Of a stretch of DNA of 64,000 nucleotides, positions 13,938 through 33,869 are shown in pieces. The stretch comes from Capsulimonadaceae bacterium. GTDB lineage: Bacteria > Armatimonadota > Armatimonadia > Armatimonadales > Capsulimonadaceae. The position numbers and the translations under genes are program-made. The first letter of the stretch is position 1, and every line of letters starts with the position of its first letter. The DNA lies in NCBI GenBank assembly GCA_965215505.1, contig OZ244065.1, forward strand, positions 5,632,001 through 5,696,000. Direction: 5' to 3'. The notes below the pieces were generated by a model. That model did not search any database and was not told where the DNA came from. It saw only the letters and a program-made list of their open reading frames with translations.

Positions 13938-15344
13938 ATGAAGAACTGTCTCGCCGCCTCACGGATACTGCTCTGCGCGGCGTTTTTCCTGACCTCCGGC
14001 GTGGCCGCCAGCGCGCAGGCGCCCGGCGACCCCAACTCGCCGCCCGCCTACGGGGTCGCCATGCGGCTCCAGGCGGAGGCGCAGGCCGCCCGCTCGGCTG
14101 GCCAGCTCGAAACCGCCCACAACCGCGCCTATCAGGCCGTCCTGCAATTCCAGCAGGTGGTCAAGAGCCGCGCCTATGGCCACACCCCCTATGCCCGCGA
14201 GGCGCTGCGGCAGCAGGCCGTTCTGGAAGAGAGCTTCTTGCAGGACAAGAACGCCGCCATCCAGTCCCTCCAGACCCTGCACAACACTTTCCCCGAAGAT
14301 CAGGCCGTCTTGATGCAGATCCAGCGTGTCGGGAACGCCCTGGACCAGTTCAACAAGACCATCACGCCACGGAGTACGCCGTTCCACGTTCTGGGCGCGC
14401 TCCTCTACCGGACCATGGACTTCCTGGTCGCGCTGACGGGCCGGCAGCCGTGGTCGTATTTCCTCGCCATCCTGATGGTTTCCGTCCTGGTCAAGCTGGC
14501 CCTGACGCCGCTCTCCAACAAGCAGTACGCCTCCATGAAGGAGATGCAGAAGCTCCAGCCGTACATGGCGGAGCTTCAGGCCAAGCACAAGAACGACAAA
14601 GAGCTGCTGGGCCGCAAAATGATGGAGCTGTACAAGGAACACAGCATCAACCCCGCCGCCGGGTGCATCACCATGCTGCCGACGATCCCCATCATGTACC
14701 TGCTCTACTACATGATCCGGCTCTACCAGTACCAGTTCTCGCACGGCACCTTCCTGTGGATCGGCAGCGGCCTGTCGCACCTGTTCCCCAGCATCATGGG
14801 CATCAACCTGGGCCAGCCCGACTGGCCCCTGCTGCTGCTGTACGCCGGCTCCATGTACGTCACGCAGAAGATGACGATCCAGCCCTCCATGGACCCGCAG
14901 CAGGCCGAGACGCAGAAAATGATGACGATCATGACGCCGTTCATGACGACCTACTTCTTCTACCAGTATCATCTGCCGTCCGCCTTCGTCCTGTACTACC
15001 TGATCTTTAACATCCTGTCCACGTCGCAGCAGAAGTACTACATGAGGAAGCGGGCCGGCGATGCCCCGAGCGCGGACAGCGGCGGCGACGGCGGCAGTAA
15101 GCGTCTTCCCCTCCTGCCTACCGGCCCCAGCGGCGGCCAGTCGAAGCCCCTGACCAACGGGAACGGCACGAGCAACGGCAACGGCAGCCGCCGCATCGGG
15201 CCGGGCCGGACCGTTCCCATCGCCGAGGCCAAAGAGGAAGACCGCACGGGCGACAATTTTGCGCCCCTGCGGAACGGCACCGCGCCGACCGCGCGGGGCG
15301 TGATTGCGCCGAAAAAGGTCCACCCCAAGAAGAAGCGACGCTAG
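13938..15344 (+). CDS. yidC: YidC/Oxa1 membrane insertase with N-terminal exported helical domain and long basic C-tail
   Basis: VKLALTPL, MQKLQP, MELYKEHSINPAAGC, LPSAFVLYY; synteny. Confidence 0.93.
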   Translation: MKNCLAASRILLCAAFFLTSGVAASAQAPGDPNSPPAYGVAMRLQAEAQAARSAGQLETAHNRAYQAVLQFQQVVKSRAYGHTPYAREALRQQAVLEESFLQDKNAAIQSLQTLHNTFPEDQAVLMQIQRVGNALDQFNKTITPRSTPFHVLGALLYRTMDFLVALTGRQPWSYFLAILMVSVLVKLALTPLSNKQYASMKEMQKLQPYMAELQAKHKNDKELLGRKMMELYKEHSINPAAGCITMLPTIPIMYLLYYMIRLYQYQFSHGTFLWIGSGLSHLFPSIMGINLGQPDWPLLLLYAGSMYVTQKMTIQPSMDPQQAETQKMMTIMTPFMTTYFFYQYHLPSAFVLYYLIFNILSTSQQKYYMRKRAGDAPSADSGGDGGSKRLPLLPTGPSGGQSKPLTNGNGTSNGNGSRRIGPGRTVPIAEAKEEDRTGDNFAPLRNGTAPTARGVIAPKKVHPKKKRR

Positions 15345-27031: not shown

Positions 27032-29821
27032 ATGTATCTTCGCTCCCTCCTCATCCTCTCTGCCCTCTTCCTCCTGTTCGGCAACATAGCCGCAAGGGCG
27101 CAGGAGACCCAGACCCAGTACCTCTCCGGCCATGACAAGGACGATGCCGTGTTGTGGGACTTCTACAGTACCGCCGGGCGCAACGCGAACCAGTGGACCA
27201 AGATCAAAGTACCCTCGAACTGGGAGCTACAGGGGTTCGGTCGGTTCACCTACCAGACCGGCCCGCCCGCAGGCGAGGCGCAGGTCGAGGGGCGCTACAA
27301 GCGGACGTTCTCGGTGCCTGAGTCCTGGTCGGCCAAGCGCGTGTTCCTGACGTTCGAAGGCGTCATGACCGACACGTCGGTGCAGGTCAACGGCCAGTCT
27401 GCCGGGCCGATGCACCAGGGCGGGTACTATCGCTTCCAGTATGAAGTCACGAAGCTGCTCAAGTTCGGCCAGGACAACCTGCTGGAAGTGACGGTGGATG
27501 AGGAATCCGCCAACGCTTCCATCAACAACGCCGAGCGCCGGGCCGATTACTGGAACTATGCCGGCATCTACCGGCCCGTCCTGCTGGAAGCCGTCCCGAC
27601 CACCTACATCCAGCGCACCGCCATCAACGCGAAGGCCGACGGCAGCCTTGCCGTGGACGTCTACGGGAACGGCACCATCCCCGGCGATACCGTCGAGGCC
27701 CAGGTCATGGACCTCAAAGGCACCCCCGTCGGTCAGCCGTTCTTACAGTCCCTCTCCGCAGGCCCGGAACCTACCCGACTGCAAACCCAGTTCGCGGCCC
27801 CTCGCTTGTGGACTGCGGAGACGCCGAACCTCTATCAGATCGAGGTGCGCCTGAAACGCGGCGTGACGGTCCTGCACTCGCTCCGGCAGCGGTTCGGCTT
27901 CCGGACCATCGAGCTGCGGCCCGGCGACGGTATCTACGTCAACGGTCGGCGCGTCATCCTGAAAGGCAGCAACCGGCACTCGTTCTGGCCGGACTCGGGG
28001 CGCTGCACCAGCGAAAAGATCAGCCGGATGGACATCGGGCTGATGAAGGACATGAACATGAACGCCGTGCGGATGTCCCACTATCCGCCCGACCAGCATT
28101 TTCTGGACGACTGCGACGAGATGGGCCTCTACGTCCTGGATGAGCTGGGCGGCTGGCAGCACACCTATGACACCCCCACGGGTCACCGGCTCGTCGGCGA
28201 GATGGTGGTGCGGGATGTGAACCACCCCTCTATCCTGTTCTGGGACAACGCCAACGAGGGCGGCTGGAACAAGGCCCTGGACGATGATTTCGCGCTCTGG
28301 GACCCGCAGCAGCGCCACGTCCAGCACCCCGGCGGGGGCCTCTTCCGCGACGTTGATGATCCCCACTACCCCGACTATGCCCGCACCCAGCAACTAGCCG
28401 CCGGTGCCAACGTCTACATGCCGACGGAGTTCCTGCACGGGATCTATGACGGCGGGGCGGGGGCGGGCCTGGCCGATTATTGGGACGCCATGCGCTTGAG
28501 CAAGGTCCTGGGCGGCGGCTTCATCTGGGCCTTCCTGGATGAGGACGTCAAGCGCGTGGACCTCGACGGCCATCTGGACAGCCACGGCAGCAACGCGCCG
28601 GACGGCATCGTCGGCCCCTACCGAGAGAAAGAGGGCAGCTATTACACGATCAAAGAGGTCTGGTCGCCCATCGTGCTTGAGGAAGGCCGCCTCAGTCAGT
28701 TGCCGTCGGTATTCGACGGAACGCTGACGGTCGAGAATCGCTACGACTTCCTGGACGCGCGGCAGTGCCGGTTCACCTGGCAGCTACGCAAGTTCGGGCG
28801 TCCGGGTGCGGCCGGGGGGGCCTTCTCCGTCCTGGCGCAAGGGGTGGGGAAGCTGGCTTCTTCAGTCCCGCCTGGAGGCAGTGGGGCGCTCACTCTGGGC
28901 CTGCCGCGAACATGGCGGCAGGCGGAGGCGCTGGCGGTGCGGGTGGACGATCCCACCGGGCACACCCTCTATACTTGGGTCTGGCCGCTCCCGCACGCAT
29001 CGGACTATCGGGCCATCACCGGCACACCGGGAGACACGAGAACGACGGTTTCGGAAACCGCTGACGCGATCCAGGTCCGCAGCGGCGCTCTTGTGGCGAC
29101 GTTCAGCAAACAGAACGGCCGGCTTTTGTCGGTGGAGCGGGGAGGCAAGCCGTTCTCGCTGAGAAACGGCCCGCGCCCGGCTGCCGGTGAGGCCACCCTG
29201 GCGAACATCGAACACCACGCGGAAGGACCGGACACGGTCATCAGCGCCACCTACACCGGGAACATGAAAACGGTCCGCTGGCGCATGAAGAGCAATGGCT
29301 GGCTGCAACTGGACTACGACTACGCGCTCGAAGGTCCGCAGGACCTCTTCGGCGTCAGTTTCGATTATCCCGAGGCGGACGTCAAGGCGATGACATGGCT
29401 TGGGAAGGGGCCGTATCACGTCTGGAAGAACCGGGTGGAAGGCACGACGCTGGGCGTCTGGTCCAACACCTACAACGACACGATCACCGGGGATGCGGTC
29501 TGGAAGTACCCCGAGTTCAAGGGCTACTTCGGCGGCGTCCGCTGGGCACAGCTCCAGACCACTGAGGGACCGATCACGGCCGTCATGGGCCAGGATGACC
29601 TCTTCCTTCAGGTGTTCACCCCGAAGTTCCCGACGAATCGGGAGTCCCGTTATACGTCCCCTGCGTTTCCCATCGCAGGCTTGTCATTCCTCCATGCCAT
29701 CCCGCCGATCGGCAGCAAGTTCACCCCCGCCGCCCGGAGCGGCCCGCAGGGGGAGCCTGCCGTCGCCACGGGTTCGTATCACGGCACGGTCAGTTTCTAC
29801 TTCGGCGGGCTGCCCAAGTGA
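27032..29821 (+). CDS. Secreted GH2 family glycoside hydrolase (beta-galactosidase-like)
   Basis: Signal peptide; VPSNWE, FEGV, AGIYRPV, WTAETPNLY, GFRTI, NAVRMSHYPP, NHPSILFWDNANEG, PTEFLH. Confidence 0.92.
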   Translation: MYLRSLLILSALFLLFGNIAARAQETQTQYLSGHDKDDAVLWDFYSTAGRNANQWTKIKVPSNWELQGFGRFTYQTGPPAGEAQVEGRYKRTFSVPESWSAKRVFLTFEGVMTDTSVQVNGQSAGPMHQGGYYRFQYEVTKLLKFGQDNLLEVTVDEESANASINNAERRADYWNYAGIYRPVLLEAVPTTYIQRTAINAKADGSLAVDVYGNGTIPGDTVEAQVMDLKGTPVGQPFLQSLSAGPEPTRLQTQFAAPRLWTAETPNLYQIEVRLKRGVTVLHSLRQRFGFRTIELRPGDGIYVNGRRVILKGSNRHSFWPDSGRCTSEKISRMDIGLMKDMNMNAVRMSHYPPDQHFLDDCDEMGLYVLDELGGWQHTYDTPTGHRLVGEMVVRDVNHPSILFWDNANEGGWNKALDDDFALWDPQQRHVQHPGGGLFRDVDDPHYPDYARTQQLAAGANVYMPTEFLHGIYDGGAGAGLADYWDAMRLSKVLGGGFIWAFLDEDVKRVDLDGHLDSHGSNAPDGIVGPYREKEGSYYTIKEVWSPIVLEEGRLSQLPSVFDGTLTVENRYDFLDARQCRFTWQLRKFGRPGAAGGAFSVLAQGVGKLASSVPPGGSGALTLGLPRTWRQAEALAVRVDDPTGHTLYTWVWPLPHASDYRAITGTPGDTRTTVSETADAIQVRSGALVATFSKQNGRLLSVERGGKPFSLRNGPRPAAGEATLANIEHHAEGPDTVISATYTGNMKTVRWRMKSNGWLQLDYDYALEGPQDLFGVSFDYPEADVKAMTWLGKGPYHVWKNRVEGTTLGVWSNTYNDTITGDAVWKYPEFKGYFGGVRWAQLQTTEGPITAVMGQDDLFLQVFTPKFPTNRESRYTSPAFPIAGLSFLHAIPPIGSKFTPAARSGPQGEPAVATGSYHGTVSFYFGGLPK

Positions 29822-30252
29822 CGCGACTGACCGAGGTCGCGGAGCGCGTCAACACGGGAGCGGATGACCCGGAAACGTCCCGCGCCCTGGTCGTTTTCAA
29901 CCAGGCCGACCTGCCGGTGAGCGGCGTCGCCGTCTTCCGGGCCGCCATGTCCTGGCCGCGCGCCCTGCCCCTGCCACCGGTCGTGGTCACGGACGACGGG
30001 CAAGCCGTCGCTTCCGCCGTCTGTGACCGGGCCGAAGCGCCGGACCTGAAAGGCCGTACCGACCGCTGCCTCCTGTCCTTCTCCCTCTGCTTCGCCGTCT
30101 CCGATGTTCCCGCGAACGGCTGGCGCACTTACATCGCCGCCTACACGGACGCGCCCGCCCCCCCGCTCGGCGATTTTGTGGAGACTCCCGGCCTCGTTGT
30201 GGTAGAAACAACGAGGCACGGCGGCGACCTGCCGCCAGTAGGAAACTTTTGA
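29818..30252 (+). CDS. Hypothetical protein (beta-sandwich-like, LVVFN motif)
   Basis: GTGA overlap with the GH2 stop; host-like codon usage. Confidence 0.6.
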   Translation: MTRLTEVAERVNTGADDPETSRALVVFNQADLPVSGVAVFRAAMSWPRALPLPPVVVTDDGQAVASAVCDRAEAPDLKGRTDRCLLSFSLCFAVSDVPANGWRTYIAAYTDAPAPPLGDFVETPGLVVVETTRHGGDLPPVGNF

Positions 30253-30286
30253 TGCCGCCGCCGCGTTTATATGCTATACTGAAACG

Positions 30287-30619
30287 ATGTTCCTGCAAAC
30301 GCTGGTCCAACTCAATATCCTGATTCTGGCGACCCCCGCGCTGGCCGGCTGGACCCTGATGCCGCTCACCCAGCCGGGCGCGGTGCGGGCCGCCTGCGTC
30401 GTCTGGCAGGGCCGGACGGTCGAGGCGGTCGCGCCCAAATCGGAGCAGGTAGAGGTGGCGAAGACTCGGCAGGCGGCGCGTCCGCAGCCGCTCATCCTGC
30501 CGCGCTTTGTGTCGCCGAGCGCGGCTAGGCCAGCACATCAGGCCCTCGCATTCTTTGTCGCCCCGACGGTAGCCCCCGCCTCGTTTAATCCCTTCCCCCA
30601 TGCCACCCGCGCCCCCTGA
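30287..30619 (+). CDS. Signal-peptide-bearing ORF upstream of secA ending ...HATRAP*; candidate translation-arrest (secretion monitor) peptide
   Basis: Hydrophobic N-terminus ending ALA; C-terminal CGC GCC CCC TGA; TGcTATACT (30272-30280) 6 nt before the ATG. Confidence 0.6.
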   Translation: MFLQTLVQLNILILATPALAGWTLMPLTQPGAVRAACVVWQGRTVEAVAPKSEQVEVAKTRQAARPQPLILPRFVSPSAARPAHQALAFFVAPTVAPASFNPFPHATRAP

Positions 30620-30632
30620 GATCGCCCCCTGG

Positions 30633-30688
30633 CCCCCAATTCTGGGGGGATCGGAGGACGCTGTAGGGGCGAACCTTGTGTTCGCCCT
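30633..30688. repeat. CCCCCAATTCTGGGGG hairpin plus GTAG-type REP
   Basis: GTAGGGGCGAAC-CTTGT-GTTCGCCCT at 30663-30688; same core inverted at 49666-49688. Confidence 0.8.
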
Positions 30689-30758
30689 CATGACCTGGCT
30701 CCTTACCTAGACCTTTGTGAGCTGGGCCATCTTGTGTGAGAGGCAATCACTAACAACC

Positions 30759-33869
<3,111 letters not shown>

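Follow-up and report, generated by a model that had tools for sequence, protein, structure and literature searches.

A candidate secretion-monitoring arrest peptide ending in R-A-P-stop upstream of secA in Capsulimonadaceae

Immediately upstream of secA in the genome of a Capsulimonadaceae bacterium (Armatimonadota) lies a 110-aa open reading frame (ORF) that opens with a hydrophobic segment and closes with the codons for Arg-Ala-Pro (R-A-P), directly before a stop codon. The locus raises the question of whether this ORF encodes a secretion monitor, a nascent chain whose stalling would report on protein export to the secA gene behind it. Export-sensing arrest peptides are the main known bacterial feedback route on SecA, SecDF and YidC levels. 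We analyzed the ORF within a 64,000-nt stretch of contig OZ244065.1 (positions 5,632,001 to 5,696,000), hereafter the window, and in related genomes. An earlier note, made from the letters of the window, had read it as an analog of SecM in another lineage, and its statements about the sequence were all verified: an ORF of 110 aa at 30287-30619, which starts 6 nt after an extended -10 element, ends in RAP-TGA and stands 139 nt before secA. When set against the published bioinformatic criteria for such peptides (PMC10987492), the analogy itself gains support as well, and from these comparisons of sequences we consider it likely that the ORF codes for a RAPP-like arrest peptide that monitors secretion for secA and is adapted to stalling at termination. 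The features on which this reading is built are the following.

30287..30619, + strand, stop included: candidate secretion-monitor arrest peptide of 110 aa, hereafter the monitor ORF (ORF call, homolog conservation, codon-position bias, profile search)
30759..33869, + strand: secA, the presumed regulated gene (four SecA Pfam domains; synteny in 24/25 loci)
30287..30352, + strand: codons 1-22, a hydrophobic, signal-peptide-like N-terminus that ends P-A-L-A-G-W and has no basic n-region (invariant or near-invariant alignment columns, hydropathy)
30590..30616, + strand: codons P-F-P-H-A-T-R-A-P, of which R-A-P at 30608-30616 is invariant; proposed arrest motif, with its Pro in the P site
30617..30619, + strand: TGA stop, proposed A-site codon of the stalled ribosome (TAG, TGA or TAA in relatives)

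Conservation of the ORF and of its last codons

The N-terminus of the monitor ORF reads MFLQTLVQLNILILATPALAGW. Its first 33 aa carry no charged residue, and the mean Kyte-Doolittle value over residues 1-22 is 1.42, with no basic n-region, as judged by hydropathy. The remainder of the chain (residues 23-110) is a linker rich in Ala (20%) and Pro (15%), which ends in FNPFPHATRAP before the TGA; the secA ATG (30759) follows after a spacer of 139 nt. Searches of Pfam (E up to 0.01) and NCBIfam matched no family, that of SecM included, and no name is attached to the ORF in the protein collection.

Homologs of the protein were sought in a first sample of 40 relatives, 24 from the window's family (23 of the same genus and one of another genus) and 16 from the sister family. 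Each of the 24 family genomes (23/23 of the same genus and the one of the other genus) contains a homolog of full length that no internal stop interrupts; the 16 sister-family genomes yielded none at E<1e-3. In 24 of the 25 monitor loci, secA lies directly 3' on the same strand, at 97-191 nt from the ORF, and in the 25th the contig ends 3 nt past the ORF. The length of the ORF varies between 93 and 111 aa across these loci, always in frame. R-A-P-stop terminates all 25, although the stop codon itself changes (TAG in 12, TGA in 7 and TAA in 6). Two further genera of the family end in the same way (G090, ...HACRAP with TAG; G177, ...FPRAARAP with TGA), which brings R-A-P-stop to 27/27 genomes.

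The alignment shows where the protein is held constant. At the N-terminus, M1, Q4, T5, Q8, L9, N10, L12, P17, L19, A20, G21 and W22 are near-invariant, and the family consensus reads M-L-L-Q-T-L-x-Q-L-N-I-L-I-L-A-T-P-A-L-A-G-W. A block just past it, at residues ~33-51, is moderately conserved. The middle zone varies both in sequence and in length, so that 71-89 residues stand between W22 and the conserved end, where P104, A106, R108, A109 and P110 are invariant. Pairwise differences at codon positions 1, 2 and 3 amount to 0.151/0.013/0.441 in the first 22 codons and to 0.154/0.086/0.522 in the last 8. Since the differences are concentrated at third positions, selection acts on the peptide and not on the DNA alone.

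A profile of the family, run against 1.84 billion representative proteins, returned 53 matches. Two of them were set aside as spurious, being long proteins in which a short internal stretch was matched, repeated 19 and 6 times. The other 51 are 54-269 aa long and 46 of them end in RAP; in the remaining five, which look truncated or frameshifted, only the N-terminal part of the profile was aligned. The proposal of a monitor depended on the RAP end being kept in orthologs, and it is kept, in the 27 genomes as in these 46 of 51 matches. Judged by its conservation, which goes well beyond chance, the monitor ORF is a real gene.

Known arrest peptides and other Armatimonadota families

Candidates for Sec/YidC monitoring substrates have been sought in >30,000 genomes (Fujiwara 2024, PMC10987492), and the properties used in that screen can be compared with the present ORF. 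It is a small ORF upstream of a sec gene and has no annotated function (criterion i of PMC10987492); more than the 30 residues asked for separate the signal-like segment from the end (criterion iv; 71-89 here); and the C-terminal end is conserved, with R-A-P in 27/27 genomes in addition to the invariant P104 and A106.

The same survey describes the RQH family of RAPP-like ORFs in nine phyla, among them a group named uA_RQH_Fimbriimonadales (PMC10987492); Fimbriimonadales is an order of Armatimonadota. The monitor ORF resembles the RQH family and ApdA/ApdP in lying upstream of secA or secDF, in its putative localization signal and variable spacer, and in having R-A-P as the last three residues of the chain at the arrest point, which is a proposed one here, the third motif residue of RAPP-like peptides being the one in the P site (PMC10987492). 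It differs in that every member has a stop codon where these peptides have an A-site Pro or Gly: instead of the four-residue motif (R/Q/H)-(A/G/D)-(P/G/S)-(P/G), a stop stands at the fourth position in 27/27 genomes. The published elongation arrest with an A-site Pro cannot therefore apply to it.

Stalling with a stop codon in the A site has been described for uA_NSP-stop, upstream of secA in Sphingobacteriaceae, and for uDF_NAP-stop in Bacteroidota, and in both the stop is required (PMC10987492). Like these, the monitor ORF is small, carries a putative N-terminal localization signal, lies upstream of secA or secDF and has Pro as its last residue before the stop. The two published groups are from another phylum, however, and have Asn at -3 (N-S-P or N-A-P) where every member of the present family has Arg; the comparison is one of motifs. 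The letters R-A-P-stop also occur in some relatives of ApcA, but the apcA gene lies upstream of yidC, and in PMC10987492 RAP* figures as a query motif of the Methods, derived from ORFs that cluster with ApcA.

SecM of Escherichia coli, too, is a monitor that is secreted and whose gene immediately precedes secA, and its end is of the R-A-x-P type. It differs in stalling during elongation at RAG/P and in its long basic n-region, whereas the monitor ORF has the motif at its very end and is probably leaderless; there is no sequence similarity between the two, and the unmasking of a Shine-Dalgarno (SD) sequence is not supported by folding in the window genome. TnaC of E. coli is a leader peptide that controls the gene behind it by stalling at its own stop codon, where the P site holds peptidyl-tRNA(Pro), and this is the kind of stalling that we propose here; yet TnaC depends on free tryptophan, lacks an export signal and works through Rho.

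Systems of this kind are already known: arrest peptides that monitor Sec, motifs like RAPP, and termination arrest at Pro-stop have all been described. A literature search for RAP-stop, for Armatimonadota arrest peptides and for Capsulimonas secA returned nothing on the present family, and 'Armatimonad' does not occur in the main text of Fujiwara 2024 (PMC10987492), whose supplementary group lists may still hold it. As far as that main text goes, what appears to be new is an R-A-P-stop form that precedes secA throughout the family Capsulimonadaceae, probably on a leaderless mRNA.

For a survey of the phylum, secA was located in 152 of 161 Armatimonadota genomes, and 60 secA upstream regions from 31 families (1-6 genomes per family, picked by hand) were inspected, 57 of which had a usable secA start. 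The ends found upstream of secA were as follows.

RAP-stop end: only the window's family, 2/2 survey loci
RAPP or RGPP followed by 1-14 residues: the sister family (f2), 6/6, and family f9, 2/2
RDGP or RAGP end: family f11, 4/4
No credible motif: the other 43 survey loci

Three weak matches among the 43 (RSGP, RSPP and QAGG) were taken as chance, and three of the 43 loci had <500 nt of upstream sequence. One f2 locus has a second short ORF with a weak RGGG match. Family f11 we infer to be the published Fimbriimonadales group. The distribution across the phylum is patchy, and a patchy distribution is also what has been published for such arrest peptides. The RAPP and RGPP ORFs of the sister family stand at the same position as the monitor ORF, which fits the earlier description of its end as having a stop codon where the final Pro would be. 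By phylogenetic position it is plausible that RAP-stop descended from a RAPP ancestor; because no homology with the f2 ORFs is detectable (see below), this ancestry is one that we infer.

Other Sec genes of the window genome were also inspected, and nothing arrest-like was found upstream of its fused secDF or of yidC that could be a second monitor. The gene order around yidC (window ~14457-15044) is the usual one, rnpA, yidD, yidC; the fused secDF gene (G000:C1:497768-500600) encodes ~940 aa and lies behind a TTGACA/TATAAT promoter. In two families of the survey, the SecA N-terminus lies in a frame of 2200-2600 aa, about twice the normal SecA, which suggests a large fusion or extension (f5: G130, G108, G140, G156, G058, G083, G096, G043, G148 and G071; f16: G093, G054, G067 and G080).

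Promoter, start of the mRNA and spacer

Two promoter elements precede the monitor ORF.

30249..30254, + strand: -35-like hexamer TTGATG in the conserved block GGAAACTTTTGAC(A), here 20 nt from the -10 hexamer
30272..30280, + strand: extended -10 TGCTATACT, with the hexamer at 30275-30280; the 6 nt GAAACG separate it from the ATG at 30287

The layout is conserved in the family as GGAAACTTTTGAC(A), a spacer and TGnTATAST. The gap between -35 and -10 is 20 nt in the window genome compared to 17-18 nt in most relatives, a length for which the TG extension of the -10 may compensate; this extended -10 is kept in 24 of 25 relatives, and the 25th has the hexamer without TG. Of the 25 genomes, 6 have the ATG 6 nt after the -10 and 14 have it 8 nt after; in the other 5 the distance is 18-21 nt. 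Among 2685 long ATG-first ORFs of the window genome, a TANNNT ending exactly 6 nt before the ATG is found in 3.5%, against ~0.7% at other distances, and TGnTANNNT at exactly this distance in 0.86%, against ~0.05% elsewhere; a smaller TANNNT peak is seen at 8 nt. The peak at 6 nt means that the organism has a class of genes with exactly such geometry, and these genes are probably a distinct leaderless class. SD-like 4-mers peak 6-9 nt before starts genome-wide, so SD-led initiation is used too. With its conserved promoter and this genome-wide class behind it, the earlier suggestion of a leaderless ORF holds up well: transcription probably starts at, or next to, the A of the monitor ATG.

The early codons of the ORF are such as a leaderless mRNA might need to keep its 5' end unstructured. 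Rare A/T-ending codons are kept there (CAA in 22/25 and 24/25 genomes, AAT in 22/25). CAA and AAT are rare codons for a genome with 66% G+C and a GC3 near 0.9. In family f9, the RAPP ORFs (L080 in G047 and L081 in G062) have a GTG start 6 nt after a TAGAAT hexamer, and the leaderless arrangement may be common to several monitors of the phylum.

Upstream of the monitor ORF lie a family-2 glycoside hydrolase gene (GH2) and an ORF of 144 aa (29818-30252, + strand), and downstream of secA a family-26 glycoside hydrolase gene. The 144-aa ORF looks coding (GC3 0.81), overlaps the stop of the GH2 gene by 4 nt and matched no family in Pfam or NCBIfam. Its stop codon falls within the -35 block of the monitor promoter, and a similar ...LPPVGNF end is kept in relatives.

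The spacer between the monitor ORF and secA holds three elements.

30620..30652, + strand: first spacer hairpin GATCGCCCCCTGGCCCCCAATTCTGGGGGGATC, which begins 1 nt past the stop (similar copies elsewhere in the genome)
30666..30687, + strand: copy of a dispersed palindrome resembling repetitive extragenic palindromes (REP-like), GGGGCGAAC-CTTGT-GTTCGCCC (90 copies by pattern, 37 exact)
30734..30745, + strand: pre-secA box GTGTGAGAGGCA, the sole conserved spacer element, with an SD-like AGG 15 nt before the ATG

The earlier note had seen hairpins in this spacer. The hairpins exist, but they are copies of dispersed repeats, which weakens the idea that they are regulatory. The pattern GGGCGAAC-N4-7-GTTCGCCC occurs in 90 genome copies, with 56 BLAST matches; copies of this REP-like palindrome often form inverted pairs ~50 nt apart, and copies are also present in the ORF-secA spacers of G012, G022 and G005. 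Across 26/26 genomes, a stable hairpin begins 1-5 nt past the stop, built from different palindromic repeat families in different genomes.

Such a hairpin would suit a route in which the stalling acts on secA transcription, the ribosome at the stop codon blocking a terminator-like hairpin or Rho loading, in the manner of tnaC. Several relatives have a hairpin that extends across the spacer, with a U/C-rich tract behind it (for example, CUUUUUUG or AUCUUGUG). But the relatives differ in the U tracts behind their spacer hairpins, many having a poor one or none, a scan of 29700-31000 of the window turned up no terminator-like site, and the hairpins belong to different dispersed repeat families from genome to genome. 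A terminator role of the post-stop hairpin is not generally supported, and we regard the transcriptional route as unlikely.

The pre-secA box offers another link. In most relatives it reads GYGCGAAAGGCA and ends 6-13 nt before the secA ATG, the rest of the spacer not being conserved. The box is complementary to the arrest-motif codons A-x-R-A, and the resulting helix has a pairing probability >=0.5 (at least 0.5) in 15 of 25 genomes. Between the box and the ribosome footprint, pairing is 0.53 with the native box and 0.16 with a shuffled one, the native value being the higher in 22 of 24 genomes; 76% of the cells pair in register, compared to 19-50% in slid registers. These genomes are related, so that they are not independent tests of the helix.

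Proposed mechanism and the readings weighed

In the mechanism that we propose, a ribosome reaching the stop codon would hold peptidyl-(R-A-P)-tRNA(Pro) in its P site in a form that resists hydrolysis by release factors, and would pause on the last codons. Since all three stop codons are used in the family, such a block cannot depend on a single release factor. A working Sec machinery would engage the exposed N-terminus and pull on the chain, ending the pause; with export impaired, the ribosome would stay longer and secA expression would be raised. The stalled ribosome would cover the box-complementary codons and the foot of the post-stop hairpin and could in this way remodel the spacer RNA.

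Several points weigh against this reading, and the first concern the chemistry of the stall. In ApdA/ApdP, the A-site Pro is uniquely required, all 19 substitutions having weakened the arrest (Sakiyama 2021), and the arrest of this type has been explained by a hydrogen bond from the A-site Pro to the Ala carbonyl of R-A-P (Morici 2024, PMC10951233; neither 'release factor' nor 'termination' occurs in its main text). If the A-site Pro is missing, R-A-P would have to block the reaction by some other chemistry. As to the localization signal (criterion ii of PMC10987492), residues 1-22 are hydrophobic and near-invariant but have no basic n-region. A comparison by hhalign of the monitor family with the RAPP ORFs of the sister family (six f2 ORFs, trimmed to a Met chosen by eye) gave a probability of 0.1% and an E of 0.55, that is, no similarity.

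The other points concern the coupling to secA, which is the least secure step and which may run through RNA remodeling near the secA start or through a transcriptional effect. Besides the fact that the spacer hairpins of the window genome are dispersed palindromic repeats and not specific to the locus, the probability of the codon-box helix is 0.00 in the window genome with its box GTGTGAGAGGCA. The covariation of the helix is no better than that of shuffles (74 of 500 score as high), because both strands are near-invariant. For SecM, the model is that the stalled ribosome melts RNA structure near the secA start (PMC10987492). A simple unmasking of the SD sequence was tried here and rejected: when a ribosome footprint was placed over the stop codon, positions -20..+5 of secA became no more accessible on average (unpaired probability 0.54 against 0.53, 26 genomes). 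A separate promoter for secA may also lie in the spacer. A consensus scan of 29700-31000 found no promoter, but it missed the monitor's own conserved promoter too, so this null says little about a secA promoter.

As an alternative to a monitor, the ORF could encode a small protein of an ordinary kind, exported or anchored in the membrane and merely placed in one operon with secA, its R-A-P being a processing, sorting or binding tag of the mature protein, with no stalling involved. Its signal-peptide-like N-terminus with an A-x-A site agrees with such a protein, and so does the moderately conserved block at residues ~33-51, as expected of a mature part. However, the linker evolves fast in sequence and length and belongs to no Pfam or NCBIfam family, and conservation is strongest at the last three residues, right before the stop. 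In addition, unrelated ORFs with RAPP, RGPP, RDGP or RAGP ends occupy the same position upstream of secA in other Armatimonadota families, which suggests that what these ORFs have in common is the function of their end motif, not that of a mature protein. We consider the exported protein quite improbable.

A C-terminal Pro before the stop is a generally poor termination context in E. coli. This, together with the lack of any large change in the modeled accessibility of the secA start site, would suit a plain upstream ORF that sets secA by termination-reinitiation or RNA unfolding, with R-A-P-stop as a slow-termination context that senses no force, but such an ORF leaves unexplained both the invariant Arg at -3 and Ala at -2 (27/27 genomes and 46/46 full-length matches) and the conserved, export-signal-like segment at the other end of the peptide, and we hold it to be very improbable.

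A secretion monitor that stalls at its own stop codon is thus the reading that we retain. We would give an even chance to a more specific proposal, that RAP-stop is a natural conversion of a RAPP elongation arrest into a termination arrest, in which the geometry of R-A-P blocks both release factors and not just the attack of an A-site Pro-tRNA, on a leaderless mRNA and with an export signal that has no basic n-region.

With R-A-P invariant and a stop codon always in the place of the A-site proline, the family makes it possible to test directly if the geometry of the chain also blocks release factors, and the series RAPP, RGPP, RDGP/RAGP and RAP-stop within a single phylum lends itself to the study of how such a sensor changes. 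It would also add a little-studied phylum, and leaderless mRNAs, to the known range of such monitors. If the proposal is true, the RAPP-like and X-P-stop classes would be linked within one phylum, and the structural model built on an A-site proline would be widened.

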